Shown: positions 3,764 through 20,928 of the stretch, in pieces | Numbering within the stretch: the stretch's first letter is position 1 | How the letters are laid out: every line of letters begins with the position of its first letter | NCBI GenBank assembly: GCA_963719225.1 | Contig: CAVRAY010000002.1 | Span: forward strand, 192,001-256,000 | Origin: Thermoanaerobaculia bacterium | GTDB taxonomy: Bacteria > Acidobacteriota > Thermoanaerobaculia > UBA5066 | Direction: 5' to 3' | Length of the DNA: 64,000 nt | Program-made: the position numbers and the translations under genes | The notes under the pieces: model-generated | The model's database searches: none | Seen by the model: only the letters and a program-made list of their open reading frames with translations | What the model was told of the DNA's origin: nothing

Positions 3764-4765
3764 GTGATGGAGAACAGCTTTCGTCGGCGGCTTGCGCACG
3801 ACACGCCCATCGTTCTCGACGCGGCGATGGGCACGGAACTTTCCCGCCGCGGCGCCGACACGGCACCTCCGCTCTGGAGCGCCCGGGCTCTCGTCGAGGC
3901 CCCGGAGCTCGTGGAAGAGGTCCACCGGGAGAACGTCGCGGCGGGCGCCGAGATCCTCACCATCGCGAGCTTCCGCCTCCACGCGAGGAACATCAGAGAG
4001 AGTTCTTGCTCCCTCTCGCAGGGGGAGCTCATCGCAAGAGCGGTGGCTCTGGCGCATCGGGCAAGGTCCGAATTCTCTTCGAAGGTGAATAGCGAGGCGA
4101 AGCCGGGGCGTCGAGCCGCCTTCTCGAGCGACGCCGCAACTCACCCTTTTGAGAAGGTCTTCAGCAGCGTCTGGATAGCCGGGTCTCTCGCCCCCCTGGA
4201 GGACTGCTACCGGCCCGATCGGGTTCCGAAGCAAGAAAATATTCTCTCTTCCGAACATTCCGAGATGGCGGCGGCTCTCGCCGCCGCGGGCGTCGATCTC
4301 ATCCTCGTCGAGACGATGAACTCGATTCGCGAGCTCGTGGCCGCGACGGCCGCGGCCGTCTCGACGGGTCTTCCCGTCCTCGCATCGATGGTCACCGACG
4401 GGGAGGGGCGGCTCCTGTCGGGAGAACCGATCGGCGACGCGGCGCAGGCGCTTCTCTCGCTTTCGACGAGCCCCGACGCCCTCGGTGTCAATTGCGTCCC
4501 CGCGCGCCGCATCGGCGCCGATCTCGCCCGCCTCGGAGCCGCGGCGCCCGGAGTCCCTCTCGTCACCTACGGCAATGCCGGGCGGGCGCTCGACGAGTCG
4601 CGCGGGCTCTTCACCGAGCCCATCGACCCGTACGAGTACGCCGCTCTCGCGCGCGGCTGGCTCGCGGCGGGCGCCCGAATCGTCGGCGGCTGCTGCGGCA
4701 CGCACGCCGCGCACGTGAGGGCGCTGCGGTCCCTGCTCGACGAGCGGCCGGGCAAAAAGCCCTAG
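3764..4765 (+). CDS. homocysteine S-methyltransferase family protein
   Basis: LDAAMGTEL, GSLAPLEDCY, GVNC and GGCCGT motifs; carries an in-frame insert near 4073-4155. Confidence 0.9.
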   Translation: MMENSFRRRLAHDTPIVLDAAMGTELSRRGADTAPPLWSARALVEAPELVEEVHRENVAAGAEILTIASFRLHARNIRESSCSLSQGELIARAVALAHRARSEFSSKVNSEAKPGRRAAFSSDAATHPFEKVFSSVWIAGSLAPLEDCYRPDRVPKQENILSSEHSEMAAALAAAGVDLILVETMNSIRELVAATAAAVSTGLPVLASMVTDGEGRLLSGEPIGDAAQALLSLSTSPDALGVNCVPARRIGADLARLGAAAPGVPLVTYGNAGRALDESRGLFTEPIDPYEYAALARGWLAAGARIVGGCCGTHAAHVRALRSLLDERPGKKP

Positions 4766-6693
4766 GGGAAGTACCCGCGGATCGTCTTCGCGCGCAGCTT
4801 CGGATTCCTGAGCTTCACCTCGATCGCGCGGAACTGGTTCTCGCCCTTCGAGGAATTCGTGAGATATCGCAGGAAATACTGAGAGCGCAGCTCCGTCTCG
4901 ATCTTCCGGTAGACCTCCGCCAAAGCCGACGCCTTGCCGATGAAGAACGCCTCGGCTCCCGTGTCGACGGCGAGCTCGCTCATCTTCGCCTTGATGCCGA
5001 AATCGAGGACCGAGAGGTTGAGGCCGATGAAGTAGATCGGCACGCCGGCGGAGCGCGCGTAGCGGCGCAGCGTTCCGTAGTCCGTCCAGGAGTGGTTGTC
5101 GTCGCCGTCCGTGAGGACGACGATCGCCTTGCGCCCGGGCAGCGAGCGGAACTGGTAGAGCGCCATCACGACGGCGTCGTAGAGCGCGGTCTCCCCGGAG
5201 GCGCGCGTCTCGGCGATGGCGCGCTCGAGGTCCGTGGACTTGTGCGTGAGGGACGCGAGGAGAGCGGGACGCTCGCGGAACTCGATGACGAAACCCTGGT
5301 CCTTTTCCTTCGAGACCAGCTTCTGCGCGAATTCGGAGGCCGCCTGGTGGACGAGAGGCATGGCGTCCTTCATCGAGCCCGATCCGTCGATCACGATCCC
5401 GAGGGAAAGGGGGAGAGACTCGGCGAACTCGAAGCTGGAGAGGTCCTGCGTCACGCCGTCCTCGAGCACCGTGAACTCCTCGCGCGGGAGGCCCTTCACG
5501 AGGCGGCCGTCGGAGTCGAAGACCGAGACCGGGAGCTCGACGAGGTTCACCTCGACCTTCGTCATGAAGCGCGATTCGCCCTTCAGGAGCTTGAGATCGG
5601 TGAACTCTTTCCCGTCGGCGTCCGTCGCGGTCGCGCGCATGAGCGTGGCCTTCTGGATCTTCGCCACGGGCACGGTGACCGTGAACGGCGGCTCGGTCCA
5701 CTCCTTCAGCATCGTGTCATCCAGCCAGAGCTGAAGCTTCTTCGCGGCGCCGCCCGCGATGGAATGCAGGGCGACTTTCAGCTCCACGGTGTCCCCGGCG
5801 GCCTTCTGTTTCGGCAGCTCGAGGATCCGGACCGCGAGACGCGAGTCCTTCTCGTTGATCGCCCAGGCGTCGGCGTCCACGAAGTTGCCCTGGACGTCGA
5901 AGCCGAGGACCTTGAGCGTCTGCTTCTTGGGGATCTTCCCGAGGTCGAGCTCGACGGTATAGGGTGCGCGGTTCTTCACGAGGATCTTCTTTTCCCCGAG
6001 GTAGAACTCCACGCGCTTGACGGGCTCCTTCACCTCGCACGCGATCCTCAGGAGGCCGACGGGCACCTCCTGCTCCGGCGCCAGGATCTTCACGAAACCC
6101 GAGGCGCCGGCCGCGAGAGGAGGACGGTTCTCGCTCTCGAGGATCACGGCGGCGGCGGTCGGCAGCCCACCGTCCGCCCCGGCGTCCTCGGCACGGAACT
6201 CGGCCGACATGGCGGGCACCATGAGCGAGATCGCGCGCGTGCCCAAGAGCACTCCCGCGACGCCCTCGAGCCGGAACTGGATGTTGACCGTGCCGGGGGC
6301 GAGAGCGCGAAGAAAGGAGATCGCCACGGGCTTCGACGCGTTCGTCACGTCCGTCGACGAAAGGTCGATGTCGACGGGCACCCGGAAGCTCTCGACGGCC
6401 TGACCCTTGTCGTCCGTCACGTCTCCTGCCAGAAAGAACGAATACACGCGCGGCTGCGCGTTTCCCGCCCCGCGGAGATCCCCCCGGCTGACCGAGAGCG
6501 TGAACTTGACGGCCGTCTTCCCCCCGGTTTTCCCGAGATACTGTTCGCGCACGTCGATCGGGATCGAGATCCCCCGTGCCTGGAGCTGGGTCTTCTGGGC
6601 CCCTCCGGGAGGGCCCGATTGGGGCCGCGCAGGAGGAGCCGAGAGGAAGGCGGCGAGGCCGATGAGCGCGAAGGCGCGGACCCGCTTCGTCAT
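4762..6693 (-). CDS. secreted VWA-domain protein (Acidobacterial VWFA-related type) with Ig-like repeats
   Basis: Signal peptide MTKRVRAFALIGLAAFL; MIDAS DGSGSM; TALYDA and LTDGDD motifs. Start moved to ATG 6693. Confidence 0.88.
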   Translation of the reverse strand: MTKRVRAFALIGLAAFLSAPPARPQSGPPGGAQKTQLQARGISIPIDVREQYLGKTGGKTAVKFTLSVSRGDLRGAGNAQPRVYSFFLAGDVTDDKGQAVESFRVPVDIDLSSTDVTNASKPVAISFLRALAPGTVNIQFRLEGVAGVLLGTRAISLMVPAMSAEFRAEDAGADGGLPTAAAVILESENRPPLAAGASGFVKILAPEQEVPVGLLRIACEVKEPVKRVEFYLGEKKILVKNRAPYTVELDLGKIPKKQTLKVLGFDVQGNFVDADAWAINEKDSRLAVRILELPKQKAAGDTVELKVALHSIAGGAAKKLQLWLDDTMLKEWTEPPFTVTVPVAKIQKATLMRATATDADGKEFTDLKLLKGESRFMTKVEVNLVELPVSVFDSDGRLVKGLPREEFTVLEDGVTQDLSSFEFAESLPLSLGIVIDGSGSMKDAMPLVHQAASEFAQKLVSKEKDQGFVIEFRERPALLASLTHKSTDLERAIAETRASGETALYDAVVMALYQFRSLPGRKAIVVLTDGDDNHSWTDYGTLRRYARSAGVPIYFIGLNLSVLDFGIKAKMSELAVDTGAEAFFIGKASALAEVYRKIETELRSQYFLRYLTNSSKGENQFRAIEVKLRNPKLRAKTIRGYFP

Positions 6694-6749: not shown

Positions 6750-8195
6750 ATGCAAGTTCCCTTCCGCCGCACCGCCGGGGCGCTTCTCGGCCTCGCTCTT
6801 CTTGCGGTTCCGGCCCCGGGAAACGCCGCCTCGCCGGCCGGGGCCGACACGTCAAGCGCCTGGCTGGACTCCACGTCCGCACGCTGGAACGAAATCGCCG
6901 AGAAGATCTGGGGCTTCTCCGAGACGGCGCTCCAGGAGACGAAGTCGTCCGCTCTCCTCGCCGACACTCTCGAAAAGGAAGGCTTCAGCGTGACGCGCGG
7001 CGTCGCGGGAATGCCGACGGCGTTCGTGGCTTCAGCGGGAGCTGGCGCGCCCGTCATCGGGGTCCTCGCCGAGTACGACGCGCTGCCCGGCCTTTCACAG
7101 ACGGCAGGCGCGCCGAAGAAGTCGCCGCTCGCCTCCGCGCCAGCTCCCGGCCACGGGTGCGGTCACAACCTCCTGGGCACGGCGGCAGTCGCGGCCGCCG
7201 TCGCGGCGAACCGCACCCGCGTCGCGGGGAAGCTTCCCGGCACGATCCGCGTCTTCGGCACGCCGGCCGAAGAGCAGCTCCTCGGCAAGCCGTTCATGCT
7301 CAGGGACGGCTCTTTCGCGGGAACCGATGCCGTCCTCGCCTGGCACCCAGCGGACGCGAACTACGTGTGCACGAAGCCTTATCTCGCGATCACCGCACTC
7401 GACGTGGAGTTCTTCGGAAAGACGGCGCATGCCGCGATGAACCCCTGGCTCGGGCGGAGCGCGCTCGACGCCGTCGAGCTGTTCGACCACGCCCTCGCGC
7501 TCATGCGGGAGCACGTGCTCCCGACCGCGCGCCTCCATCGCGCGATCAAGAGTGGCGGCCTCGCGGCGAACATCATCCCGGACTATGCCCGCGTCCAGTG
7601 GTTCGTGCGGGACGAGAACGGAGAACGCGTGAACGAGATGGTCGGGCGCCTGAAGAAGGCAGCCGAGGGCGCGGGTCTCGCGACCGAGACGACGTCGAAG
7701 GTGAGCCTTCTCGCCTCGACGCGCGAGCCGCTCTTCAACGCCGAGCTCTCGAAGGTCCTCCAGAGACATCTCGCCCTCGTCGGGGCGCCGAAGTGGGATG
7801 CCGCCGATGTCGCGCTCGCGCGCGGTGTCCAGAAAGAGGTCGGCATTCCCGAGGCCGGCCTTTCGGACACGGTCCTCCCATATGGTCCCGGGCACGGGTC
7901 CGGGGCTTCGTCGGACGTGGGCGAGGTGAGCGCGGCATTGCCGGTCGCCGAGCTCGCGGTCGCGACGGGGGCCGTGGGCCAGCCGTGGCACCACTGGGCC
8001 GTGACGTCCTGCTCGGGGCACGCGCTCGGCCGAAAGGGCATGCTCGTCGCGGCCAAGGTCCTCGCCGCGACGATGACGGATCTCCTGGGCGATGCCGCGA
8101 CCGTCGCCGCCGCGAAGGCCGAGTTTCAGAAGGCGACCGCCGGCAAGCCCTACGTCAGCCCGCTCGCGAAGGACGCGGTGCCGAAGATCTACTGA
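6750..8195 (+). CDS. M20 amidohydrolase (AbgB-like), secreted
   Basis: EYDALPG, GHGCGHNLLG, GTPAEE and SSDVGEVS motifs; signal peptide. Confidence 0.9.
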   Translation: MQVPFRRTAGALLGLALLAVPAPGNAASPAGADTSSAWLDSTSARWNEIAEKIWGFSETALQETKSSALLADTLEKEGFSVTRGVAGMPTAFVASAGAGAPVIGVLAEYDALPGLSQTAGAPKKSPLASAPAPGHGCGHNLLGTAAVAAAVAANRTRVAGKLPGTIRVFGTPAEEQLLGKPFMLRDGSFAGTDAVLAWHPADANYVCTKPYLAITALDVEFFGKTAHAAMNPWLGRSALDAVELFDHALALMREHVLPTARLHRAIKSGGLAANIIPDYARVQWFVRDENGERVNEMVGRLKKAAEGAGLATETTSKVSLLASTREPLFNAELSKVLQRHLALVGAPKWDAADVALARGVQKEVGIPEAGLSDTVLPYGPGHGSGASSDVGEVSAALPVAELAVATGAVGQPWHHWAVTSCSGHALGRKGMLVAAKVLAATMTDLLGDAATVAAAKAEFQKATAGKPYVSPLAKDAVPKIY

Positions 8196-9364
8196 TCGCC
8201 GGGGGCGTCCACCGCGCGAAGCACGCCGTAGTCGACGAGCTTCCGGACGAGCTGCCGTCGCAGGACGAGCCCGTGGTCCTTCTTGATCGCCCTGAGCGCG
8301 TCGGGCACCTTCGAGCCGTCGAAGGCGGGAAGCGCCGGGAGGAGCACGGCGGGGGCATCGATGGGGTCGTAGGCGCTGTAGGTGGCCAGGCGAACGGTCC
8401 CATGTCCGACGCCAATGACGCTGAGGTTGCCGACCTCGAGGCGCTCCGGAAGTGCGTCGCTGGTCACCGCGTCGTAAGCAGCGCGTGCGAGCTGCGCGTG
8501 GAGAGCGACGGTCGCACCTCCGATGCGCTCCACGGCCTTCCACTCCAGGTTCCGGACGATCGCGTCGCATTCGCGGTAGAGCTCCTGCTCGCGTCCGGCC
8601 CAGCTTCCCCAGAGGGACCTGTACCTCTCGGGGCTTACGGTGCCGTCGATCTCGTCGCCCTTGACGGCTTCCGTCCGCCTTTGTGATGGCGGAAGTTTGA
8701 GCGGAAAGTTCACGCGGAGCGCTGCGTGGTCGAAACCGAGGGTGACGAGGCAGTGGATCGCGAGGTTTTCCTCGATGGCCGTCAGCAGCTCCCTGGCCGA
8801 GTCCCAGAACCGCTTCGCCGTGTCCCCGCGCTCGTGCTTGCAGAACCAGGTCATGCAGACGGAATTGCGATGACGCCAGATCCCGCATTCGCCGCCGATC
8901 CGGTCTTCGAGGTAATAGGGGCAGAGCATCGCCTCGCTGTGGCCGAAGACCCCGTCCCCGTGGTCGTACAGGAGGTTGTACGCCCCGCCGGCGCCGACCC
9001 AGAGCGGCGTCACGCCGACTTTCTTTCCGATCCTCTCCACGACGCGGGCCCGCCCTTCGGCCATGTCGGGTGACCCGTCCGCCAGGATCGCCCCGACGAG
9101 AAAGTTGTGAAGCTTCGGCAGGTACGTGCAGCACTTCGTCTTCGGGTTGAAGTAGACCGCGTCACGCTCTCCGTCCGCGCCGCCGGACACGGGCAGCATC
9201 GCGCAGTTCTCGCACGTGGCGTGCGGCTCGGAGGGGATCTTGCCCCCGAGCGCCGCCTCGAGCCAGCGCGCGTGGAGCGGCGCCAGGCCCTTGGCGGGAG
9301 CGTCGGCGATAAAAGGGAGCCGGACCATGGGAGCCCTGGGGCGTGTCACCTGGTCATTGCTCAC
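8189..9364 (-). CDS. Cys-cluster (YkgJ/CxxCxxCC-like) protein with putative C-terminal RRE/PqqD-like domain; candidate peptide maturase, copy 2
   Basis: CENC...KCC...CPYY...CGIWRHRNSVC...FC pattern; C-terminus FDGSKVPDAL...LVRKLVDYGVL; about 85% identical (manual count) to 10618-11796. Confidence 0.75.
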   Translation of the reverse strand: MSNDQVTRPRAPMVRLPFIADAPAKGLAPLHARWLEAALGGKIPSEPHATCENCAMLPVSGGADGERDAVYFNPKTKCCTYLPKLHNFLVGAILADGSPDMAEGRARVVERIGKKVGVTPLWVGAGGAYNLLYDHGDGVFGHSEAMLCPYYLEDRIGGECGIWRHRNSVCMTWFCKHERGDTAKRFWDSARELLTAIEENLAIHCLVTLGFDHAALRVNFPLKLPPSQRRTEAVKGDEIDGTVSPERYRSLWGSWAGREQELYRECDAIVRNLEWKAVERIGGATVALHAQLARAAYDAVTSDALPERLEVGNLSVIGVGHGTVRLATYSAYDPIDAPAVLLPALPAFDGSKVPDALRAIKKDHGLVLRRQLVRKLVDYGVLRAVDAPGDQ

Positions 9365-9372
9365 TAATAGAT

Positions 9373-9522
9373 CTAGGGGGAGGCCTTGTCGATATGCTTG
9401 GGGATCGAAAGATCACCGTGGTCGACCCTCCCCCCGCGGACCTTCCCGCCCTTGGCGGGCTTGACGTCGAGGTTCTTGGCCATTCTCTTTTGAGCCTTAG
9501 GTTTCTCCTTCGCGATTTTCAT
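9373..9522 (-). CDS. double-glycine precursor peptide P10 (core RVDHGDLSIPKHIDKASP, Hcp-like)
   Basis: MKIAKEKPKAQKRMAKNLDVKPAKGGKVRGG|RVDHGDLSIPKHIDKASP; RBS AAAGGAG. Confidence 0.88.
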   Translation of the reverse strand: MKIAKEKPKAQKRMAKNLDVKPAKGGKVRGGRVDHGDLSIPKHIDKASP

Positions 9523-9539
9523 GTCTCTACTCCTTTGAA

Positions 9540-9686
9540 TCAAAGCTTCTTGACGCCGCCGCCGGAGCCCCCCGGCAGTTTGTCCATGCCGCCGCGGACC
9601 GCCCCGCCCCTGGACGGCTTGACCTCGAGGTCCTTGACGGTCTTCTTTCGCGAAGCCTTCGGGTTCTTCTTCGCAACCTTCTTCAT
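9540..9686 (-). CDS. double-glycine precursor peptide P9 (core MDKLPGGSGGGVKKL)
   Basis: MKKVAKKNPKASRKKTVKDLEVKPSRGGAVRGG|MDKLPGGSGGGVKKL; RBS AAAGGAG. Confidence 0.88.
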   Translation of the reverse strand: MKKVAKKNPKASRKKTVKDLEVKPSRGGAVRGGMDKLPGGSGGGVKKL

Positions 9687-9910
9687 GTCCTCGCTCCTTT
9701 CTTCCTGTGTCGGTCGTGGCCTGGCTTCGGCCTTCGCTCGGCCGGAGCATCCTTGAACGGCGGCTCTTCCTCTGTCTTGGGGATCGGGGGACGTTCACCA
9801 AAGACCGTCTTCTGTGCAGCGCCCCCCTTGGGGTCGTTTCGGGGGACGAGGTCCCTGAGGGGTACGAACCCCGGCGACGGCTCCTTCCTGCGGCGCCTTG
9901 GCTTCGTCAT
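9683..9910 (-). CDS. second-type precursor-like peptide Q2 (LRDLVPRNDPKGG leader)
   Basis: MTKPRRRRKEPSPGFVPLRDLVPRNDPKGG|AAQKTVFGERPP...; paralog of 12170-12394; stop overlaps P9 start (ATGA). Confidence 0.75.
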   Translation of the reverse strand: MTKPRRRRKEPSPGFVPLRDLVPRNDPKGGAAQKTVFGERPPIPKTEEEPPFKDAPAERRPKPGHDRHRKKGART

Positions 9911-9917
9911 GCCGGCT

Positions 9918-9988
9918 TCGATGTCGACGGGCACGCGGAAGCTCTCGACGGCCTGGCCGCGGTCATCCGCGCCCGAAAGGAAGAACGA
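9918..9988 (-). repeat. diverged 71-bp copy of an internal segment of the VWA gene (6365-6441)
   Basis: 37/38 nt identical over the first block; encodes SFFLSGADDRGQAVESFRVPVDI versus SFFLAGDVTDDKGQAVESFRVPVDI. Confidence 0.9.
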
Positions 9989-10106
9989 TTTGGGTTTGGC
10001 CGTAGCCCCCACGGACTGTCCCGCCCTTCGCGGGCTTGACCCCGAGGTTCTTCGTCGCCTTGGTAGTCCTTGACTTGGAGGCCGTCTCCCTCGGGGTCTT
10101 TTTCAT
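9963..10106 (-). CDS. double-glycine precursor peptide P8 (core YGQTQIVLPFGRG)
   Basis: MKKTPRETASKSRTTKATKNLGVKPAKGGTVRGG|YGQTQIVLPFGRG; RBS AAAGGAG. Confidence 0.85.
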   Translation of the reverse strand: MKKTPRETASKSRTTKATKNLGVKPAKGGTVRGGYGQTQIVLPFGRG

Positions 10107-10617: not shown

Positions 10618-11796
10618 TTAGACGTGCTCGTCTTCGGGGGCGTCCACCGCGCGAAGAACGCCGTAGTCGACGAGCTTTCGGACGAGCTCGAGGCTCAGGA
10701 CGAGCCCGTGGTCCTTCTCGATCGCCCGAAGGGCGTCACGCACCTTCGAGCCGTCGAAGGCGGGAAGCGCCGGGAGGAGCGCGGCGGGCGCATCGGTCGG
10801 GTCGTAGGCGCTGTACGTGGCCAGGCGCACGGTCCCATGCCCGACGCCGATGACGTTGAGGTTGCCGATCTCGAGGCGCTCCGGAAGAGCGGAACTCGTC
10901 ACCGCCCGGTACGCGGCGCGTGCGAGCTGCGTGAGGAGAGCGACGGTCGCGCCGCCGATCCTCTCGACGTCCTTCCACTCCATGTCCCGGACGATCCCGT
11001 CGCTTTGGAGGTAGAGCTCCTTCTCGCGTCCGGCCCAGCTTCCCCAGAGGGCCTTGTACCTCTCGGGGCTCACCGTGCCGTCGAGCTCGTCCCCCTTCAC
11101 GGTTTCCGTCCGCTGAGACTTCGGAACCTTGAACGGGAAATTGGTCCGGAGCGCCGCGTCGTCGAAACCGAGGGTGACGAGGCAGTGGATCGCGAGGTTC
11201 TCCTCGACGGCCATCAGCAGCTCGTTGGCCGAGTCCCAGAACCGCTTCGCCGTGGCCCCTCGCTCGTGCTTGCAGAACCAGGTCATGCAGATGGAATTGC
11301 GGTGACGCCAGATCCCGCAGCCGCCGCCCATCCGGTCTTCGAGGTAGTAGGGGCAGCGCATCGCCTCGCTGTGGCCGAAGACCCCGTCACCGTGGTCGTA
11401 CATGAGGCCGTACGCTCCGCCGGCGCCAACGGAGAGCGGCGTCACGCCGACCTTTCTTCCGATCCTCTCCAGAACGCGCGCCTGTCCTTCGGCCATGTCG
11501 GGCGCCTCGTCTGCGAGGATCGCGCCGACGAGAAAGTTGTGAAGTCTCGGCAGGTAGGTGCAGCACTTCGTCTTGGGATTGAAGAAGACCGCGTCCCGGG
11601 CCCCGTCCGCGCCGCCGGGCACCGGGAGCATGACGCAGCTCTCGCATGTGGCGTGGGGCTCGGAGGGGATTTTTCCTCCGAGAGCCGCTTCGAGCCAGCG
11701 CGCATGGAGCGGCGCCAGGTCCTTGGCGGCAGCGCTGGCGATGAAAGGGAGCCGGACCATGGGAGCCCTGGGGCGTGTCACCTGCTCATTGCTCAC
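10618..11796 (-). CDS. Cys-cluster (YkgJ/CxxCxxCC-like) protein with putative C-terminal RRE/PqqD-like domain; candidate peptide maturase, copy 1
   Basis: CESC...KCC...CPYY...CGIWRHRNSIC...FC pattern; paralog of 8189-9364; GTG start just after precursor P5. Confidence 0.75.
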   Translation of the reverse strand: MSNEQVTRPRAPMVRLPFIASAAAKDLAPLHARWLEAALGGKIPSEPHATCESCVMLPVPGGADGARDAVFFNPKTKCCTYLPRLHNFLVGAILADEAPDMAEGQARVLERIGRKVGVTPLSVGAGGAYGLMYDHGDGVFGHSEAMRCPYYLEDRMGGGCGIWRHRNSICMTWFCKHERGATAKRFWDSANELLMAVEENLAIHCLVTLGFDDAALRTNFPFKVPKSQRTETVKGDELDGTVSPERYKALWGSWAGREKELYLQSDGIVRDMEWKDVERIGGATVALLTQLARAAYRAVTSSALPERLEIGNLNVIGVGHGTVRLATYSAYDPTDAPAALLPALPAFDGSKVRDALRAIEKDHGLVLSLELVRKLVDYGVLRAVDAPEDEHV

Positions 11797-11804
11797 TAAT
11801 AGAT

Positions 11805-11942
11805 CTAGGGGGAGGCCTTGTCGATATGCTTCGTGATGAGAAGGTCGCCTCCGCGAACCGCTCCGCCCTTGCCTGGCTTGACGTCGAGGTCCTTGGCCGC
11901 CTTCTTGGCCTTCGAGGGGGTCTTTTTAGTGGTCTTCTTCAT
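11805..11942 (-). CDS. double-glycine precursor peptide P5 (core DLLITKHIDKASP, Hcp-like)
   Basis: MKKTTKKTPSKAKKAAKDLDVKPGKGGAVRGG|DLLITKHIDKASP; RBS AAGGAG. Confidence 0.88.
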   Translation of the reverse strand: MKKTTKKTPSKAKKAAKDLDVKPGKGGAVRGGDLLITKHIDKASP

Positions 11943-11993
11943 GTCGTTTCTCCTTCCTTCCTGTTTCAGTCGTGACCCGAACATGAAACGCAA

Positions 11994-12173
11994 TTAGTGT
12001 TTCCGCCATACCTCAATGACCACTTCCTTAATGTGCTCTCCCTTGATGGGAATGATGTCTCCGAGGCCATGCCCTCCACGGACCGTCCCACCCTTGGCGG
12101 GCTTGACGTCGAGGTTCTTCAGTGCCCTCTTGCGCGAGGCCTTCGCGGCGCTTTTCTTCGTGGTCTTTTTCAT
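11994..12173 (-). CDS. double-glycine precursor peptide P4 (core HGLGDIIPIKGEHIKEVVIEVWRKH, Hcp-like)
   Basis: MKKTTKKSAAKASRKRALKNLDVKPAKGGTVRGG|HGLGDIIPIKGEHIKEVVIEVWRKH; RBS AAAGGAG. Confidence 0.88.
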   Translation of the reverse strand: MKKTTKKSAAKASRKRALKNLDVKPAKGGTVRGGHGLGDIIPIKGEHIKEVVIEVWRKH

Positions 12174-12394
12174 ATCGGTTCTCCTTTCTTCCTGCTTCGG
12201 TCGTGACCCGGCTTCTGCCTTCGTTCCGCCGGAACATCTTTAAGGGGGTGGTTATCTTCTGTCTCGAGGATCTGGGGACGTTCGCCGAAGACCGTCTTCC
12301 CCGCCGACCCCCCCTTGGGGTCGTTTCGGGGGACGAGGTCCCTGAGGGCGACGAACCCGGGCGGCGTCTTCGTCTTGCGGCGGCCCTTCTTCAT
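12170..12394 (-). CDS. second-type precursor-like peptide Q1 (LRDLVPRNDPKGG leader)
   Basis: MKKGRRKTKTPPGFVALRDLVPRNDPKGG|SAGKTVFGERPQ...; start overlaps the GT41 stop and its own stop overlaps the P4 start. Confidence 0.75.
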   Translation of the reverse strand: MKKGRRKTKTPPGFVALRDLVPRNDPKGGSAGKTVFGERPQILETEDNHPLKDVPAERRQKPGHDRSRKKGEPI

Positions 12395-13896
12395 CACGCC
12401 GCCACCGGTGCGGGAAAGCAACCGCGTTCCTCGCCGCTGCCTCGCGCCTCCGAGCGAGATCGCGCGCGCCAGAGCTGGAAATAGACATCCTCGATGCAGC
12501 GCGCGAGCCTCGCGCAGTCGGTGACGGGCGAGGCCTTCAGGCGCTTCCTCATCGTGCGCCGTAGCTCTTCGCGTCTTTCCGCTTTTGCCGCCGATCCCCA
12601 TCGAATGGCCGTCTCGACGTACCCGCGCACGTCCCGGCTGACGAACTTCCCGAGACCGGCGTTTTCCAGCAGCGACGCGCTGGTACGCGAGATCCACCGA
12701 TCCCCCGAGAACGCGACGACCGGAACGCCCTGCCAGATGGCTTCCGTGGTCGTCGTGCCCCCGTTGTACGGGAACGTGTCGAGGGCGAGGTCGATGGCGT
12801 CGTAGTTTCGGAGGAAGTCGTAGTGCTCCGCAGGTCCGAGCATCGCCACGCGCTCGGGCTCGATGCCGCGCCGCGTGAATCGCGCGAGTGTGTGCTTGCG
12901 ATTGCCGGGGTCTCCCAGAGCGGCGTTGGCCAGGAGAAAGCGGCTTCCGGGGCATCGCCTCAGGATCTCGGCCCACGCGGCGACGACGCCGTCGTTGAGC
13001 TTGTAGAGCGACGAGAGACTGCCGAACGTGACGAAGCCGTTCTTGAGCGACGGCGGTGGCGCGACATCGGGGACCGGGTAATTCACCGCGAACGTCAGAG
13101 ACGAGAGCGGGAGCTCGACGACCTGCTCTCCATACCAGTGCTTCTCGCCGTCACGAATGAGCCAACGATCGCCGATCAGCGCATCGAACACGGGCAACCC
13201 GGAGGTTCCGAAGATGTTGAACCACGCCACGACGACTGGAGCCAGCCTCGTCGCGAACAGCGGCAGCCGGCCCACCCGACTGTACTGGTTGAGATCCACG
13301 AGAACGTCGAGCCCCGCCCGGGCGATCCGGCACGCGGCCGCGCCGTTGTCGAGGCGCGAGATGTCGTGGACGTGCGCCCCGCTCGTACGCGCCCGGCGGC
13401 GCACGGCGGAAGGGCGCGACGCGTCGGAAAAAAGGTGGACCTCCACCCTGCCGGGGTCGTGGTGATCGATCAGCCCCCACACCGGCTTCATCCAGTTGTC
13501 TGCGTGGAAAAACGACGAGACGTAGCCGATCTTTAGTACTTTCCTGACCGGGCTGCCGACGACGATCGCCCTGGCGGGCGCGACGGCTCGGGCGCGAACC
13601 GCGTCGCCCAGCGCGCGGCGGACCTTCAGGATCGCCGCGTGGTCCAGGCGCGGGTCGAACGGGGCGATCGTCGCGAGGAGCCGCTGGGCTCGGATGTCCG
13701 TACGAATCCGGAGAGACGCCCGAAGATGCCGGGTCGCCCTCTCGACCTCACCGAGCGCGAAGGTCGCCCGGGCGAGGTAATAACGTGCGGCCGCAGAATC
13801 CGGACTCGCCCGGACGGCCGATTCGAAGACAGCGAGGCCGCTCGCGTACTTGCCGGCCGCGAGCATGCGACGGCCATTCGGGCAGCCGGCGATCAT
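12394..13896 (-). CDS. TPR + GT41 (OGT/SPINDLY-like) glycosyltransferase
   Basis: N-terminal TPR; LKIGYVSSFF, DVLVDL, RLAPVVVAW, VTFGS..LYKLN and DLALDTFPYNGGTTTTEAIWQGVPVV motifs; ATG 13896 overlaps P3 stop (TGATG). Confidence 0.88.
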   Translation of the reverse strand: MIAGCPNGRRMLAAGKYASGLAVFESAVRASPDSAAARYYLARATFALGEVERATRHLRASLRIRTDIRAQRLLATIAPFDPRLDHAAILKVRRALGDAVRARAVAPARAIVVGSPVRKVLKIGYVSSFFHADNWMKPVWGLIDHHDPGRVEVHLFSDASRPSAVRRRARTSGAHVHDISRLDNGAAACRIARAGLDVLVDLNQYSRVGRLPLFATRLAPVVVAWFNIFGTSGLPVFDALIGDRWLIRDGEKHWYGEQVVELPLSSLTFAVNYPVPDVAPPPSLKNGFVTFGSLSSLYKLNDGVVAAWAEILRRCPGSRFLLANAALGDPGNRKHTLARFTRRGIEPERVAMLGPAEHYDFLRNYDAIDLALDTFPYNGGTTTTEAIWQGVPVVAFSGDRWISRTSASLLENAGLGKFVSRDVRGYVETAIRWGSAAKAERREELRRTMRKRLKASPVTDCARLARCIEDVYFQLWRARSRSEARGSGEERGCFPAPVAA

Positions 13897-14069
13897 CAGG
13901 ACTTGAGCCGCGTGTCGTGACTCCACTGAGTGCTTTGAATTTCGATCCAATCCGTGTGTCGCACCTCTCCACCACGGACCGTCGCGCCCTTGGCGGGCTT
14001 GACCCGGAGGTTTCGGACGGGCTTCTTGTGAGCGGCCTTCGGCGCGGTTCTCTTGGTTGTTTTCTTCAT
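13896..14069 (-). CDS. double-glycine precursor peptide P3 (core EVRHTDWIEIQSTQWSHDTRLKS, Hcp-like)
   Basis: MKKTTKRTAPKAAHKKPVRNLRVKPAKGATVRGG|EVRHTDWIEIQSTQWSHDTRLKS; RBS AAAGGAAG. Confidence 0.88.
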   Translation of the reverse strand: MKKTTKRTAPKAAHKKPVRNLRVKPAKGATVRGGEVRHTDWIEIQSTQWSHDTRLKS

Positions 14070-14129
14070 GACGTTCTTCCTTTCTCGAGCGGACTCTCAC
14101 TATGTCGACGGACCTCTTCATGCCCTGCT

Positions 14130-14254
14130 TCATTCCTGGATCTTGGTTATCGGCTTTTTCCCCCCGCGGACGGTCCCGCCCTAGGCGGGCTGACCTCGAG
14201 GTTTCGGACGGCTTTCTTTGCCTTCGACGCGCTTTTCTTCGTGGTCTTGTTCAC
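14130..14254 (-). pseudogene. degenerate precursor P2 (1-nt deletion plus TAG in leader; restored core KKPITKIQE)
   Basis: GTG NKTTKKSASKAKKAVRNLEV, then gtc a-g ccc gcc TAG ggc ggg acc gtc cgc ggg ggg. As written it reads ...SPPRAGPSAGGKSR* (stop at 14147). Confidence 0.75.
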
Positions 14255-14261
14255 GTCGTCC

Positions 14262-14399
14262 TCATTTCGGCCGCCTATCTGGGGGACCGGGGGGGAATCC
14301 TCCGCGGACCGACCCGCCCATGACGGGCTTGACCTCGAGGTCCTTGACCGCTTTCTTGTTAGATGCCTTCGAGGGGTTCTTCTTCGCAGTCTTCTTCAT
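14262..14399 (-). CDS. double-glycine precursor peptide P1 (core FPPGPPDRRPK)
   Basis: MKKTAKKNPSKASNKKAVKDLEVKPVMGGSVRGG|FPPGPPDRRPK; RBS AAAGGAG; first gene after the sigma54 promoter. Confidence 0.88.
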   Translation of the reverse strand: MKKTAKKNPSKASNKKAVKDLEVKPVMGGSVRGGFPPGPPDRRPK

Positions 14400-14591: not shown

Positions 14592-15566
14592 TCACTTCGT
14601 GTCGCTGAGCTTCCTCTCGAGTCGGGCGCGGGAGATGCCGAGGGCCCGGGCTGCTCTCGTCTTGTTGCCGGAGAGCTCCCGGAGGACCCGGCGGATGTGG
14701 TTCTGCTCGACGGTTCGGAGACTCAGGTCGGTTGCGGGTGCCGGCCGCGCGGCGGAAGGCGGCGCTCCGGAGACGCCGTCGTTTTGGATCGGGACTGAGA
14801 GTTCCTCGATCACGCTGCCCTCGGTCATCGCAATGGCGGCGTGAATGACGAGGTCGAGCTCGCGCAGGTTCCCGGGCCAGTGGTACGAGAAGAGAGCATC
14901 CGCGGCCTTCTGTGAGAGGCCGGAGATGGCCCGTCCCTGCGCATGGGCGGCGCGGCGGATCGAGGCCGCGACGAGCTCGCGCAGGTCGTTCGGCCTCTCG
15001 CGCAGCGGGGGAAGGGTGACCGTGAGCCCCGCGAGCCTGTAGAAGAGGTCGCTCCGGAACTGCTCGGTGTTCGCGAACCGCGCGAGGGCGTGGCGCGTGG
15101 CCGAGATCAGCCGCACGTCCGCCGTGCGCAGGCGCTCGGAGCCGAGCCTCTCGAATTCGCCGTATTCGACCGCCCTGAGGATCTTCGCCTGGGCGAGCGG
15201 GCTCATGTCGGCGATCTCGTCGATGAAGAGGGTGCCGCCGTCGGCGATCTCGAACTTGCCGCGCACCTGCCGCTTCGCGTCCGTGAACGCGCCTTTCTCG
15301 TGGCCGAAGAGCTGGCTGTCGAGGAGCGTGTCGGAGAGGGCGGCGGCGTTGAAAGAGACGAAGGGGGCCGACGCCCTGAGAGAGGAGTTGTGGATGGCCT
15401 GGGCGAGGAGCGTCTTGCCGGTGCCTGACTCGCCGAGGAGGAGGAGCGGAAGCTCGGTCCGGCAGGCGGCGCGCGCCACGTCGAGGCACCGCCGCATCGC
15501 GGCGTCGGCTGTTCGGAAGCTCTCGAGCGTGAGGCGTGCCGCGTCGGGGAAGCTCTCCCGGGTCAC
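14592..15566 (-). CDS. sigma54-dependent transcriptional activator lacking an N-terminal sensory domain (AAA+ and Fis HTH only)
   Basis: GESGTGKT, LFGHEKGAFTDA, LFIDEI, FRSDLFYRL, WPGNLREL and GNKTRAARALGISR motifs; GTG overlaps HlyD stop. Confidence 0.9.
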   Translation of the reverse strand: MTRESFPDAARLTLESFRTADAAMRRCLDVARAACRTELPLLLLGESGTGKTLLAQAIHNSSLRASAPFVSFNAAALSDTLLDSQLFGHEKGAFTDAKRQVRGKFEIADGGTLFIDEIADMSPLAQAKILRAVEYGEFERLGSERLRTADVRLISATRHALARFANTEQFRSDLFYRLAGLTVTLPPLRERPNDLRELVAASIRRAAHAQGRAISGLSQKAADALFSYHWPGNLRELDLVIHAAIAMTEGSVIEELSVPIQNDGVSGAPPSAARPAPATDLSLRTVEQNHIRRVLRELSGNKTRAARALGISRARLERKLSDTK

Positions 15567-16765
15567 CGGATGTTCTCCCTCAGCTGCCGGAGCGGCTCGA
15601 AAGCGTACTCGACGAGAGTCCGACGGCCGACGACGATCCGCGCCATCCCGCGCATTCCCGCGAGGAGCGGTTTGCGCTCTCCGTCCGCCGCGACGGTTTG
15701 CTCGTCCAGGTCGACGAGGACGGGAAATGTCGCCGTCTCGCGGATCCCGACGCCGGAGGGGCTGGCCCACCGGACTGTCCCTCCGCGGACGCCATAGCGC
15801 TGGTACGGGAACGCCTCGAGGAGGAGACGAACGTTCTGGCCGGGGCGAATCCGGGCGAGGCCGCCCTGCGGAAGTGCCAGCTCGGCCTGAAGAGTTTCGG
15901 CGGAGCACGCGACCTCCGCGAGGACGTCGCCGTCACGGACCACAGCTCCTGCCCGCCTCGCCGTGACCCCGAGAACCGTGCCGTCGCAGGGAGAGTTGAC
16001 GGCCAGCTCGTTTCCAAGCCCGTCTCCGCCTGCGGAGGGCGCCTCGCCGCTGAGCGCCCCGATCCTGATTCTCGCCTGCGCGATCTTCTCTGCGAGGACC
16101 CGCTCCTCCTCGTGGAATTCCATCCCTTTGGCCGCCTCGGTGTCGCGGAGCTTTTCGATGGCGCTTCCGGTCGCGCCCCGCTCGGCCTGGAGCTGCTCGA
16201 GCTCCATCACGGCCTGGCTGTGCCGGATCTGGGCGTCGGAGCGCTCGTTCAGGCTCGCGAGCCCCTGGTCGGCGAGCTTCTTCGCGCGCTCGGACTGCTC
16301 CTTCGTCAGGACGAGCTGCTCCCTTTTCAGGGCCAGCATCCGATCGAGATAATCCGCGCGATCGGCGAGGCTCCGGGCCTCCTCGCGCCTCGCGCTCGCC
16401 TCGCTTTCGAATCTCCTCCGGGCATTGGAAAGGCTCTCGGCAAGGCCGCCGAGACCGGCTTCGAGCGCCTTCCGCTCGGACGCCCGGTCGGCGAATTCCT
16501 GTGACCGGATGGCGAAGAGCCTCGCCCCCCTGAGCACCGGGCGCCCCTCGACGGCGAGCACGTCCGTGACGGTTCCCCCGCGCGGAGCGCGGACCGGGTC
16601 GGTGCCGCGCACCGGCACCAGCGCGAACGGGGCAACGACCGTCTCCGGGACCTTGACGGCCACCGAGACGATCGCCGCGGCCACGAAGAGAGCGATCAGG
16701 ATCCAGGCGAGGCTCCGCGCGGCGAACGGCGGCGGGTCGCTCGGGAGAAACGGCGTCTCGTCCAT
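15563..16765 (-). CDS. HlyD-family membrane fusion protein
   Basis: N-terminal TM, coiled coil, AFPYQRYG and LLAGMRGMARIVVGRRTLVEYAFEPL motifs. Confidence 0.92.
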   Translation of the reverse strand: MDETPFLPSDPPPFAARSLAWILIALFVAAAIVSVAVKVPETVVAPFALVPVRGTDPVRAPRGGTVTDVLAVEGRPVLRGARLFAIRSQEFADRASERKALEAGLGGLAESLSNARRRFESEASARREEARSLADRADYLDRMLALKREQLVLTKEQSERAKKLADQGLASLNERSDAQIRHSQAVMELEQLQAERGATGSAIEKLRDTEAAKGMEFHEEERVLAEKIAQARIRIGALSGEAPSAGGDGLGNELAVNSPCDGTVLGVTARRAGAVVRDGDVLAEVACSAETLQAELALPQGGLARIRPGQNVRLLLEAFPYQRYGVRGGTVRWASPSGVGIRETATFPVLVDLDEQTVAADGERKPLLAGMRGMARIVVGRRTLVEYAFEPLRQLRENIR

Positions 16766-19700
16766 CTAGATCCCCAGCTGCTGGCTCGAGAGGTAGTAGT
16801 AGAGGCCCTGGCGGTCCATCAGCTCGTCGTGGATCCCCTGCTCGACCAGACGCCCCTTCTCCAGCACGAGGATGACGTCCGCGTCGCGGATGGTGCTGAG
16901 CCGGTGCGCGATCACGAATGACGTCCGGCCTTCCAGAAGGCGGTCGAGGTTCTCCTTGACCGCCCGTTCCGACTCGCTGTCCAGTGAGCTGGTCGCTTCG
17001 TCGAAGATCAGCACCGGGGGCCGGTTGTAGATGGCACGCGCGATGGCGATGCGCTGCTTCTGTCCGCCGGAAAGAGCGAGGCCCGACTCGCCGACCCGGG
17101 TGTCGTAGCCCAGGGGAAACCTCTCCACGAACTCGTGGGCGCTCGCGACGCGGGCAGCCCAGAGAACCCGGTCCATGTCGGGCTCGGCGTCGCCGAAGGC
17201 GATGTTCCGCGCGATCGTCTCGTCGAAGAGGTAGTTCTCCTGGAGGACGAAGCCGACGCGCCGCCGGAGGTCCCTGTAGTTCAGCTTTTCGAGGTCCACT
17301 CCGTCGAAGAGGATCGATCCCTCGGTCGCCTCCAGGAGGCCGGAGAGGAGCTTGGCGAGCGTCGTCTTGCCGGAGCCGCTTCGGCCGACGACCGCCACCA
17401 TCTTTCCGGGCTCCACGTCGAAGGTGAGACCCTCGAGGATCTTCGGCGACTCGGGCCCGCCGTACTGGAAGCCGACGTTCCTGAGCGAGACCTTTCCCGC
17501 GAGCGTTCGGACCGGAATGAGCGCGGACCGGTCGTCGCCCTGCTCGGGGGTCTGCTCGAAGACGTCGTTCAGGCGGTCGAGGAGGACCGTGCCGTACTGG
17601 AGGTGGTCCCAGGTCGCGAGCAGGATCCCGATCGGCGCGTTCGCGAGGGCCACGAGCGCGTTGAACGCGACTAGCCCGCCGATGGTGAGCGACCCGCGCA
17701 TCACCTGGAGCGCGCCCGCCCACAGAAAGAGGGCGACCGAGAGGAAGCTCACGGCCTGGACGGCGCCCTCGTAGGTCATCACGGTGAAGTCGGCGCGAAA
17801 CTGCTTGCGGGCGAGGCCGAGGAACCGTTCCAGCATCAGCTGCCTGAGTGAGCCTTCGGCTCCGAGCGACTTGACGGTCTCGATCCCCTTGATGGTGTCG
17901 ATCTGATGGGCCGAATACTTTCCGAACGCCTCCTCGAGCGTGTCGAAGACGGGACGGAGCTTCCGCCGCGAATACCTCATCAGGAGGGCGTAGAGGGGAA
18001 CGGTCGCGAGGAAGACTCCCGCGAGGAGGGGGCTGTAGACGAACATCAGGACCACGACTGCGGCGAGCTGGGAGAGGGCGGTCAGGGAGGAGACCCCGTA
18101 CTGGACCAGGAGCTCGCGCACCTGACGGAGGCCCATGAGACGGCGCTGGATGTCCCCCGTCTTCCGCGTCGAGAAGTAGGACATCGGAAGCGACAGGAGG
18201 CGCCGGGTGATGAAGTCGAGCGTCGCGGCGTCGATCCGGACTGCGGCGAAGCTCAACAGGTATCGCTGCAGCACCATCGCCAGGGTCGAGAAAACGAGGA
18301 CGCCTCCCATCCCGAGGAGAAGAATCCGGAGCAACCCCTCGTCGCGCTCGACGAGAACCCGGTCGACGATCACCTGGCTGAAGACCGGCAGCACCATCTG
18401 CAGGATGCTGACGATCAACGCCAGAGCGGCCGCCTTCGCGAGGAGAGCGGCGTGCGGCCGAAAGAAGCGGGTGAGCCACGCGAAGCTCGAGCGTCCCACC
18501 GGAGCCTTCTCGAACGCTTCCGTGTAGTCGAAGAGGGCAGCGTAACCCGTCCACTCCTTCTCGACCTCTGCGCGCGGCAGGAGCCGGAGCCCGACCCCAG
18601 GGTCGGCCAGGCGAACGTCCGCCGGGTTCGTGTCGTAAAGGACGACCCAGTGGTTGCCGCCCCAGTGAAGGATGGCGGGGAGCGGCATCTGGTCCAGGTG
18701 CCGCGCCGAGGCCTTGACGGAGCGCGCGGCGAGTCCCAGCTCCTCGGCTCCGCGGCAGATCGCCCGGAGGCTCGTGCCGTCGGTCGATGTGAAGAGGAGC
18801 TGCCGGATCCGCGCCAGGCTCACCGCGCGGCCGAAGTGGCGACAGACCATCGCCAGGGAAGCCGCGCCGCAGTCCATCTCGTCGATCTGCCGGATGAAGC
18901 GGAAACGGCGGATCCGCCGAGCCTTCTTGGTGAACCGACCGTCCTCCGTCGCGAAGGGAGCGGCGGGCTCCTCGCCCGCTGCTTCGTCCGCCCGGCCGCC
19001 GGCATCCTCGTCGACTTGGTCCGGACCCACCTCCTCCACCGCCGCCTCCGCGGGCAGGAGCTCGTCGGCGAAGTCGAGCGGAACCGTCGCCTCCTTTCGG
19101 TAGTCGTACTGGGCGATACGCCGGCCGATGGCCGCGCGGAACCCGGGATGCGCCTCGGTGACGGCCCGGAAGGCGGTCGGGTGCAGGCTCAGGAGCCGAC
19201 AGGGCGTGACGGCCTCGACTGTGGCCTTTCTCGGTTCTCCCGTGAACGCCGAGATCTCGCCGAAGACATCGCCTTTCCGGAGGTAGGCGATGTTTCGCAG
19301 GTGCCCGTCCTCCTCGGCGAAGGCGCGAAGCCTTCCTTCCTCGACGACGAAAAGAGGTCCTTCCCCGTCTCCCTGTCGGAACACGGTCTCCCCTGCGGCG
19401 ACGGCGATCGTCTCGAACCGGTGGAGGAGCCCGGCGAGGACCGCTGGCGGAAGCGTGGAGAACGGGGTGTAGAGACGGAAGAGGTTCTGGAGGCTCCGGT
19501 ACCGGCTGTGGAGCTCCAGGCAGGTCCGGATCTCGGGATCGCCGGAGAGAAGCTCGTCGAAGGCGCTTCGGTCGAGCCGGAGGACCGTCGCGGCGCTCGA
19601 CGCGCGCACCGTGGCCTGCCGCCTGGCGGAGTCGTCCAGGAGACCCATTTCGCCGAAGCTGTCCCCGGGACGAAGCACGCCGAGCGAAACCTCCTCGCCC

Positions 19701-19948
19701 CGCTCTCCCATCTTCACCGCACGGGCTTTCCCGGCCACGAGGACGAAGAAGGCGTCCGCGGGATCGCCCTCGCGAAGGATGACGGCGCCGAAGGGAAAGG
19801 AGACGGGGACGAACTTCCCGGTCACCGCGGCGCGAGACGCAGGCGAGAGGAACTTCAGGAGCGGCAGGTCGTCGAGGAGGGCCCGCGCCGCCTCCACCTC
19901 CGGCGGGAGGGACGACTTCGCCTTGCTCTTCAAGGCTTCCATAGCCAC
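16766..19948 (-). CDS. peptidase-containing ABC transporter with two cNMP-binding domains, C39 peptidase, TMD and NBD
   Basis: FGEMGLL..RQATV and FGEISAF..RKATV (cNMP); QIDEMDCGAASL, LHWGGNHWVV, LADP (intact C39 Cys/His/Asp); GRSGSGKT, LSGGQKQR, IFDEATS. Confidence 0.94.
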   Translation of the reverse strand: MAMEALKSKAKSSLPPEVEAARALLDDLPLLKFLSPASRAAVTGKFVPVSFPFGAVILREGDPADAFFVLVAGKARAVKMGERGEEVSLGVLRPGDSFGEMGLLDDSARRQATVRASSAATVLRLDRSAFDELLSGDPEIRTCLELHSRYRSLQNLFRLYTPFSTLPPAVLAGLLHRFETIAVAAGETVFRQGDGEGPLFVVEEGRLRAFAEEDGHLRNIAYLRKGDVFGEISAFTGEPRKATVEAVTPCRLLSLHPTAFRAVTEAHPGFRAAIGRRIAQYDYRKEATVPLDFADELLPAEAAVEEVGPDQVDEDAGGRADEAAGEEPAAPFATEDGRFTKKARRIRRFRFIRQIDEMDCGAASLAMVCRHFGRAVSLARIRQLLFTSTDGTSLRAICRGAEELGLAARSVKASARHLDQMPLPAILHWGGNHWVVLYDTNPADVRLADPGVGLRLLPRAEVEKEWTGYAALFDYTEAFEKAPVGRSSFAWLTRFFRPHAALLAKAAALALIVSILQMVLPVFSQVIVDRVLVERDEGLLRILLLGMGGVLVFSTLAMVLQRYLLSFAAVRIDAATLDFITRRLLSLPMSYFSTRKTGDIQRRLMGLRQVRELLVQYGVSSLTALSQLAAVVVLMFVYSPLLAGVFLATVPLYALLMRYSRRKLRPVFDTLEEAFGKYSAHQIDTIKGIETVKSLGAEGSLRQLMLERFLGLARKQFRADFTVMTYEGAVQAVSFLSVALFLWAGALQVMRGSLTIGGLVAFNALVALANAPIGILLATWDHLQYGTVLLDRLNDVFEQTPEQGDDRSALIPVRTLAGKVSLRNVGFQYGGPESPKILEGLTFDVEPGKMVAVVGRSGSGKTTLAKLLSGLLEATEGSILFDGVDLEKLNYRDLRRRVGFVLQENYLFDETIARNIAFGDAEPDMDRVLWAARVASAHEFVERFPLGYDTRVGESGLALSGGQKQRIAIARAIYNRPPVLIFDEATSSLDSESERAVKENLDRLLEGRTSFVIAHRLSTIRDADVILVLEKGRLVEQGIHDELMDRQGLYYYLSSQQLGI

Positions 19949-20928
19949 GTGACCCTGTTGTCGACCTCGCGCGCGACGAGGCCTTCGAGGAGGCTGGACT
20001 CCGCCTTTTCCTTTACCTCGGGATCGTCCGGCATCGGCGGAATCTTCGCGCGGAGCGAGACGAGCACGAACTCGTCGCCGACGCTCACCGGACCGACGAG
20101 CTCTCCCGGGCGCGCCGAGAGCAGGACGTCCCGGACCTCAGGCTCAGCCTCGTCGAGAAACTCCACGCCTTCCTCCGTGGCTTCGCCGATTTCCTCCGCC
20201 AGCCTTTCGAGGGCGACTCCCTCCTGTCGCACCGCCATCGCCGCCTCGCGCGCGGCGTCCTCGCCGGGAAGCCTCAGGACGCTGCAGTCGATGCGGGTCC
20301 AATCGGTGAGGTGCGCCTTGACCCGCGCCGCCAGCGCATCGGGAGTGAGCACCTCATCGCGAAACCGCTCGTACGAGAGCTCCAGGCGAGCGAAGACCTC
20401 CCGCCGCTCGACGAGCGTCCCGGTCGGGCCTGGTTCTTCGTCGGGAGCCTGCGTCCGTTCCTTCTCCCTTTCCCCGATCGCGGCCCGCCCCGCGAGCTGC
20501 CGCGCCAGACGCTCCAGCTCTCCGGAACACACGGCCTCGCCGAGGACGGCCAGCTCGACCTGGCGAGGATCCACCTGGGGCTTGGCCGGAAGGACGAAGT
20601 CCGGAAGGCGGTCGCGGAGGAGGCTGGCGTGAATCCAGTCGAGCCAGGTCTCCGCGTCGAGGCGCCAGCGCGCGAGCCAGCGTTCCAGCTCCTCCGCGGT
20701 GATGAGGTCCCGCTCGTACCGGAAGTCGTCCGCGGCCCCGTCGATCTCATCTTGAGGAATGACGGCTTCCGCGGCCGTGTCCGCAAAGGCGAGAAGAGCG
20801 AGGTTGTCGAGAGCCCGCTCCTCGATCTCCTTCCAGTCGCCCCGCAGCTCCGCAGCCAGGACGACGTCCTCCCACCGGAAGACCCGGCCACCCGCGCAAA
20901 ATACGTCCCGCCCGAAGAGATCCTGCAC
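19930..20928 (-). CDS. acidic PpiC/SurA-related (peptidyl-prolyl isomerase-like) protein, type I secretion/peptide maturation associated
   Basis: EIDGAADDFRYERDLITAEELERWL and LLSARPGELVGPV resemble PPIase-like partners of cNMP-HlyB/HlyD systems; very Glu/Asp-rich. Confidence 0.7.
   Translation of the reverse strand: MQDLFGRDVFCAGGRVFRWEDVVLAAELRGDWKEIEERALDNLALLAFADTAAEAVIPQDEIDGAADDFRYERDLITAEELERWLARWRLDAETWLDWIHASLLRDRLPDFVLPAKPQVDPRQVELAVLGEAVCSGELERLARQLAGRAAIGEREKERTQAPDEEPGPTGTLVERREVFARLELSYERFRDEVLTPDALAARVKAHLTDWTRIDCSVLRLPGEDAAREAAMAVRQEGVALERLAEEIGEATEEGVEFLDEAEPEVRDVLLSARPGELVGPVSVGDEFVLVSLRAKIPPMPDDPEVKEKAESSLLEGLVAREVDNRVTWLWKP

Follow-up and report, generated by a model that had tools for sequence, protein, structure and literature searches.

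The island and its precursor genes

The window, i.e., the whole stretch of 64,000 nucleotides analysed here, carries an island that measures about 12.9 kb and is flanked by an M20 peptidase gene on one side and by the next core gene on the other. Genomes G003 and G017 have no island at this site. The island encodes a PpiC-like protein, a cNMP-C39-ABC exporter, an HlyD protein, a sigma-54 activator, a TPR-GT41 protein, two E proteins, two Q peptides and a set of Lys-rich double-glycine precursors, nine of them intact and one broken (Table 1). The broken copy (14124-14250) has a frameshift and a stop in its leader; it may be a pseudogene or result from a sequencing error.

Table 1. Coordinates of the features discussed (positions in the window)
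Feature	Position	Strand	Remarks
Resident VWA-domain gene	4762..6693	-	TIGR03436 acidobact_VWFA above cut-off
Segment of the resident VWA-domain gene matching the piece	6365..6441	-	
M20 peptidase	6750..8195	+	left island border
E2	8189..9328	-	Cys-rich; no Pfam/NCBIfam family; end overlaps M20 end as in L075
Two precursors of the likely resident block	9373..9686	-	core RVDHGDLSIPKHIDKASP matches Hcp (Pfam E 0.0018, below cut-off)
Q2 peptide gene	9683..9910	-	start of the likely resident block
Piece of a VWA-domain gene, probably a congeneric ortholog	9918..9988	-	71 nt; codons 85-110; 6-nt deletion
Precursor P8	9963..10106	-	34-aa Lys-rich leader ending VRGG; core YGQTQIVLPFGRG
Stretch between P8 leader and piece	9989..10004	-	16 nt
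Two precursors between E1 and P8	10161..10554	-	
E1, second copy	10618..11760	-	85% aa to E2; closest to the first E copy of G017; likely imported
Q1 and two precursors	11805..12394	-	Hcp-like cores: DLLITKHIDKASP (p 0.007), ...KGEHIKEVVIE... (p 0.017)
TPR and GT41 glycosyltransferase	12394..13896	-	stop overlaps Q1 start
Two precursors and one broken leader copy	13896..14399	-	core EVRHTDWIEIQSTQWS... Hcp match p 0.010
Sigma-54 activator, HlyD, cNMP-C39-ABC exporter, PpiC-like protein	14592..20928	-	

The VRGG end of the leader is invariant in 18 of 18 aligned precursors. Exporter and membrane fusion domains are found nearby (PF03412, PF00664, PF00005 and PF13437), and the C39-ABC transporter is the predicted agent of leader cleavage and export. 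As to modifying enzymes of the RiPP type, the GT41 protein is present; TIGR04500 scored 32 bits against a cut-off of 180. The only lead for the E protein is YkgJ/CxxCxxCC (score 0.81). Its relatives occur in 9 of 61 genomes, the close ones only in G017 (two copies) and G005, and the two closest E-bearing records in genome_contigs are Thermoanaerobaculia. In one database record (P0123) the leader runs in frame into an E protein, which may be a fusion or a read-through.

The Q peptides (9683-9910 and 12170-12394) differ from the variable precursors in that the core after KGG is conserved across G000 (the genome of the window), G017 and G041; a distinct function, possibly a regulatory one, is conceivable. 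G017 contains 28 matches to the leader. No relatives of the precursors were found in viral_contigs. G041 has a further type of precursor (L069:677-1547 and L065:7621-7815), whose leader carries LKLxRETL and whose Cys-containing cores do not match Hcp.

The VWA piece in the P8 slot

One precursor of the array, P8, ends in a stretch of DNA that resembles part of a neighbouring gene. When the whole 4.75-Mb assembly was searched, 9918-9969 matched 6365-6416 of the resident VWA gene at 46 of 52 nt (E 1.4e-12); the next-best non-self match had an E of 0.008. The first block is identical at 37 of 38 positions and, with one 6-nt gap, the match spans 9918-9988 and 6365-6441 on the same strand, 3553 nt apart, just as the initial annotation had described it. 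The matching codons lie in the N-terminal region, far ahead of the VWA domain (residues 434-587). Translated in the frame of the VWA gene, the piece reads SFFLSG--ADDRGQAVESFRVPVDI, and 8 of its 11 mismatches to the resident gene are at third codon positions, in line with the earlier remark that many differences are synonymous. An apparent Thr-to-Ala change vanishes with optimal placement of the gap. The gap, judged from the alignment, reflects bases lost from the piece: they are retained in the resident gene and in 16 of 16 orthologous segments compared.

Read in the frame of P8, i.e., out of the VWA frame, the piece supplies the last eight residues, IVLPFGRG, together with the stop, as had been proposed; 26 of these 27 nt derive from it, and its other 45 nt lie beyond the stop. 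The stop depends on a GAT codon that is absent at that place in all orthologs compared. GAT makes up 27 of 206 Asp codons in seven window genes, and the GAT behind the P8 stop could have arisen by chance. The 16 nt between leader and piece had no match in a slot search of 63 family genomes and are likely the stump of P8's former core. At its other end the piece stops 7 nt before the Q2 start codon at 9910, hence indeed at the junction just ahead of the duplicated Q2 block. The repeat formed by Q1 and Q2 reaches 9923 and thus overlaps the piece by 6 nt; similarity to the GT41/Q1 boundary starts where the piece ends, just before Q2. The piece takes up 71 of the 94 bases of the slot between two conserved modules. 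A slot of 94 nt is of ordinary size; slot lengths in the arrays vary widely.

Provenance of the piece

The P8 slot matches 21 of 63 family genomes, and the non-self matches cover the piece only, never its flanks. In at least 16 of the 20 other genomes the match lies at the coordinates of the VWA ortholog. Most of the congener loci examined have this ortholog next to M20. Across the 71 bases of the alignment, the piece has 11 mismatches to the resident gene, 9 to L075, 8 to G017 and 7 each to G003 and G025; all seven to G003 are at third codon positions. Not a single base is private to the piece among 17 segments compared: each is present in at least one of them. The differences follow codon position (8 of 11 third) and not adenines, i.e., not the pattern of a diversity-generating retroelement. 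We infer that the piece is a recent fragment of a functional VWA ortholog from another species of the genus. The suggestion of a diverged VWA homolog under selection as donor is thereby sustained: the piece is nearer to the orthologs of congeners than to the resident gene, and it has no private base. The exact donor was not found among the orthologs compared. A pattern containing the 6-nt deletion had 0 matches in genome_contigs, where the own genome was possibly left out, and G017 has no VWA piece outside its VWA gene.

The duplicated block and its assembly

In L075 and L076, two nearly identical loci of one lineage, a single block GT41-Q-P-P-E lies directly against M20-VWA, and the piece is absent; a comparison of orthologous loci had been asked for in the initial annotation. 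In G000 the block is present twice, and P-P-P8-piece separates the two copies. In run X4, a contig has M20 joined directly to an E gene. The end of E2 matches the M20-overlapping end in L075, the 3' flank of E1 closely matches that of the first E of G017, and E1 differs from the latter at 33 of 193 fourfold sites, compared with about 0.30 for the flanking core genes M20, VWA and SDR (Fisher p 2.8e-4). These three observations moderately support the reading that E2 is probably the resident copy and that the E1 block was probably imported. E1 and E2 differ from each other at 23% of fourfold sites. In the E tree a clade of E1 and E2 is not rejected (p-AU 0.122), and the tree singles out no sister of E1. 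Microhomology is weak, with 4 of 6 bases at the distal join and none at the proximal one. As to intermediates, no locus with E-P-P-P followed by M20-VWA was found, and in G017 the arrays lie elsewhere than next to M20.

The assembly does contain the piece, and the data from sequencing runs speak neither for nor against the assembly at 9918-9988. Matching by words yielded 22 runs with word fractions of no more than 0.09 and no RNA run among the matches listed. Among the matches listed for the 8 of 22 runs examined, no contig bridges either join; the run contigs over 9918-9969 continue as VWA gene sequence (again among the matches listed). A degenerate pattern for the P8/VWA join had 0 matches in metagenome_contigs. 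About 200 kb of C2, the contig of the window, occur twice: C2:6294-223464 and C2:608067-801307 are syntenic, inverted and roughly 70-85% identical, and the second copy lacks the island. One arm of this doubled stretch probably derives from another species of the genus that is included in the assembly. The VWA copy in the second arm was considered as donor of the piece and dropped, as it differs from it at 23 positions.

Other slots of the arrays

When 24 internal slots (from G000, G017, L075 and L077) were compared with 18 island and flanking genes, five proved traceable at the DNA level, all to adjacent genes: P8 to VWA, three to the 5' end of GT41 and one to the 5' end of E. A comparison of 72 core-plus-flank DNAs with the window's own genome, the island being masked, gave one strong match inside a core, that of P8. 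Five other matches with E<1e-5 lay at least 60 nt past the GG, and 1 of 360 shuffled queries reached that level. Two window slots (searched against 29 genus genomes) and four slots of G017 (against 5 genomes) had no matches other than to themselves. Short-peptide tblastn is too weak for tracing donors: P8 failed to return VWA, and Hcp came first for 7 of 61. A stretch of 43 nt after the last precursor on C6 of G017 (L030:2265-2307) is 86% identical, in reverse orientation, to internal sequence of a gene of G000 (C1:3812758-3812799, E 2.7e-6); it may be a further scrap, left at the end of an array.

Because the traced slots lead to neighbours and the searches found no distant donor inside a core, the array would appear to turn over by duplication and deletion, leaving scraps of neighbours behind; in P8 such a scrap seems to have replaced part of the core.

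Hcp-like cores

What the other cores have in common is visible at the protein level. Pfam T6SS_HCP was the sole match for 3 of 16 peptides, two of them from the window, all below the cut-off; the window peptides score 19 and 12.9 bits against a cut-off of 23.5. Among 50 hand-picked peptides it was the best Pfam match in 17, no other family occurring twice, and one reached 23.5. A profile built from 52 Hcp proteins of the genomes examined, with significance judged by shuffling (p<=0.01), matched 22 of 72 cores. Without G041 (its loci were chosen through Hcp), G051 and duplicates, 13 of 42 remain, including 3 of 9 window cores. P8's own core is not among the matches (p 0.27).

A larger sample of database proteins consisted of the best 120 of 167 near-length matches plus 3 longer ones, from which 7 unparsed or too short sequences and 4 duplicates were dropped to give 112 cores. 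In this sample 44 of 112 match Hcp and together cover 141 of its 162 positions. A repeat on the same cores gave 40 of 112 for Hcp against 0-1 of 112 for eight control profiles, a figure that is possibly overstated, as the query profile held Hcp-like cores and the control families are less diverse. The best solved-structure matches of one peptide include chains named hcp1, EvpC and hemolysin-coregulated protein.

The likeness to Hcp mostly stops at the stop codon of the core; read-through alignments rarely pass it, and for this reason the Hcp-like cores look old and maintained by selection. A match running through stops at 9340-9462 turned out to be mostly a truncated core. Three longer proteins bear the leader among the matches listed, none of them a full Hcp fusion. 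G041 (99% complete) has 13 partial Hcp matches and G051 (96%) has 9; full-length Hcp and TssC were not found in either. Judged by these alignments, the conserved content of the array is Hcp segments behind predicted export leaders, distinct from P8. The idea of gene pieces behind a constant leader thus finds support at the protein level, for a donor, Hcp, that the initial annotation had not named.

Some further observations concern Hcp and the type VI sheath. At L058:1085-1940 (C29 of G017), a divergent Hcp-like gene is preceded, about 300 nt upstream, by a single precursor that itself has an Hcp-like core. L050 (G005) has two tandem Hcp-family genes with N-termini that, by eye, resemble signal peptides. 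In G000 the main TssC (VipB) match, C1:3152913-3153762, is split over several frames, the sheath gene being broken or mis-sequenced, and an Hcp match at C1:3228008-3228301 is in two pieces.

How the end of P8 may have arisen

Most likely, the piece is a scar of transfer and deletion that made the new core end of P8. A stretch of the locus of a related species would have integrated in tandem ahead of the resident Q2-P-P-E2 block, and the piece would be the leftover of the junction. Donor DNA in which the E1 block runs on into its own VWA gene would have recombined by homology upstream and would have been joined, without homology, through codon 110 of the donor VWA gene to the beginning of the resident block. 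A deletion would then have removed the donor M20 gene and the start of VWA and fused the remainder to the P8 leader, so that the end of the core was replaced by an out-of-frame tail with its own stop. P8 would be a by-product of the duplication-and-deletion turnover of the array. This scheme requires two separate junctions. A scar fits best because the donor gene is 3.5 kb away and points the same way, the piece borders directly on the duplicated block, and the other traced slots hold ends of adjacent genes.

The initial annotation had left the choice between a scar of duplication or transfer and a general capture of foreign gene pieces behind the leader. Of the two, the scar is the likelier. 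A capture process that puts short foreign gene pieces straight into the slot, the VWA piece being a recent one and the Hcp cores older and selected, is unlikely, even if the way in which the piece fills its slot, and the ordinary size of that slot, would suit it. The many registers at which Hcp-like cores start, and their wide coverage of Hcp (in the best 120 of 167 relatives plus 3), would suit it as well, as would the Hcp pieces of G041 and G051, where full Hcp and TssC were not found, and, weakly, the lack of a fusion of leader and full-length Hcp among the matches listed. A random donor, however, is expected to lie within 3.6 kb in about 0.15% of cases (4.75 Mb). No integrase, Cas1 or reverse transcriptase family was found among the seven large genes of the island, the slots are of no uniform length, and the Hcp likeness mostly ceases with the core. 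At the DNA level general capture finds no support, as the five traceable slots of 24 all derive from adjacent genes and none from a distant one. No other core had a distant DNA donor in the searches run, an outcome that had been named beforehand as favouring a one-off scar.

The transfer scar shares its geometry with a simpler event, a tandem duplication in place of the genome's own Q-to-VWA segment with later divergence of the copies, and the E tree would permit this. We nevertheless consider it quite improbable. The two E genes have diverged at nearly a quarter of their fourfold sites, yet the piece has no private substitutions and retains its third-position bias, whereas a non-coding copy of such age should decay without codon bias; moreover, the piece is nearer to other species than to the resident gene. 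Least probable of all is an assembly chimera, in which sequence of a relative living alongside was wrongly joined in, as the piece or as the doubled block. The recurrence of C2:6k-223k in inverted form at C2:608k-801k, a contamination of 6.21% and the fact that P8 is on record from one contig only (P0058) would be compatible with it. It is made less likely by the 23 differences between the piece and the VWA segment of the second copy, by the 6-nt deletion, which is absent from all orthologs, by the position of the joins, neither of which is in a repeat, and by the 99.9% identical repeats that the window's arm has in common with C1.

Comparison with known systems

Integration in which one end recombines by homology and the other is joined illegitimately is described in PMC3240628. 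In homology-facilitated illegitimate recombination and in tandem duplications made by transformation (PMC3240628; PMC3784515), foreign DNA comes to lie beside the homologous locus with a novel junction and old and new alleles in tandem, as here. Here, by contrast, the event is deduced from sequence only, and a second deletion presumably shortened the join, which now codes for part of a core. A foreign origin of the inserted DNA is indicated by its mismatches, which number 7 for each of two congeners and 11 for the resident gene, and an unduplicated locus without the piece exists in L075/L076, i.e., in one lineage.

The precursors of prochlorosins (ProcA) and cyanobactins combine a conserved leader with variable cores in many genes (PMC10783134; PMC13500794). 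In the same sources, the prochlorosin leaders end in Gly-Gly, the genes are in tandem, and the cores are said to diversify by insertion-deletion events. The island differs in having neither LanM nor YcaO, in cores that match segments of one structural protein, Hcp, and in one core that was traced to a named neighbouring gene. With the double-glycine substrates of peptidase-containing ABC transporters (PCATs) the precursors share the GG-ending leader, and the island has the C39-ABC exporter and HlyD; what differs is the very Lys-rich leader, an exporter with two cNMP-binding stretches, and the company of GT41, a Cys-rich orphan and a PpiC-like protein.

The cores align with motifs of the Hcp/TssD tube protein (PF05638) along most of its length, but they comprise only 7-33 residues, stand behind an export leader and also occur in genomes in which no full Hcp or TssC was found; with one exception among 50 hand-picked peptides, they fall short of the Pfam cut-off. 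In CRISPR arrays and integrons, repeat-like conserved modules alternate with variable slots, as here. Unlike these, the island has no acquisition enzyme among its seven large genes, its slots are not uniform in length, and their contents do not trace to a range of distant DNA sources.

Biological meaning

The diversification of cores behind a constant leader is usually inferred. In P8 the end of a core was traced to a named gene, with a likely transfer as its source. Taken alone, P8 is probably a modest, one-off scar. The arrays might also be seen as a library that repeatedly samples foreign Hcp segments and delivers secreted Hcp mimics against the type VI systems of competitors, the VWA piece being an off-target product. 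This reading is doubtful. If it were true, the mimics would block, decoy or report on the type VI tubes of competitors, and the VWA piece would show a new core born from a gene piece.

More than one third of the sampled cores are Hcp pieces in many registers, also in genomes in which no type VI system was found. For Hcp-derived peptides behind double-glycine/C39 leaders no description was found in the literature searched, outside of which lie most subscription papers. The family is a surprising one, and any role assigned to its peptides is conjectural. Should these peptides turn out to act on Hcp tubes, bacterial competition would include a counter-measure or signal of a new kind.
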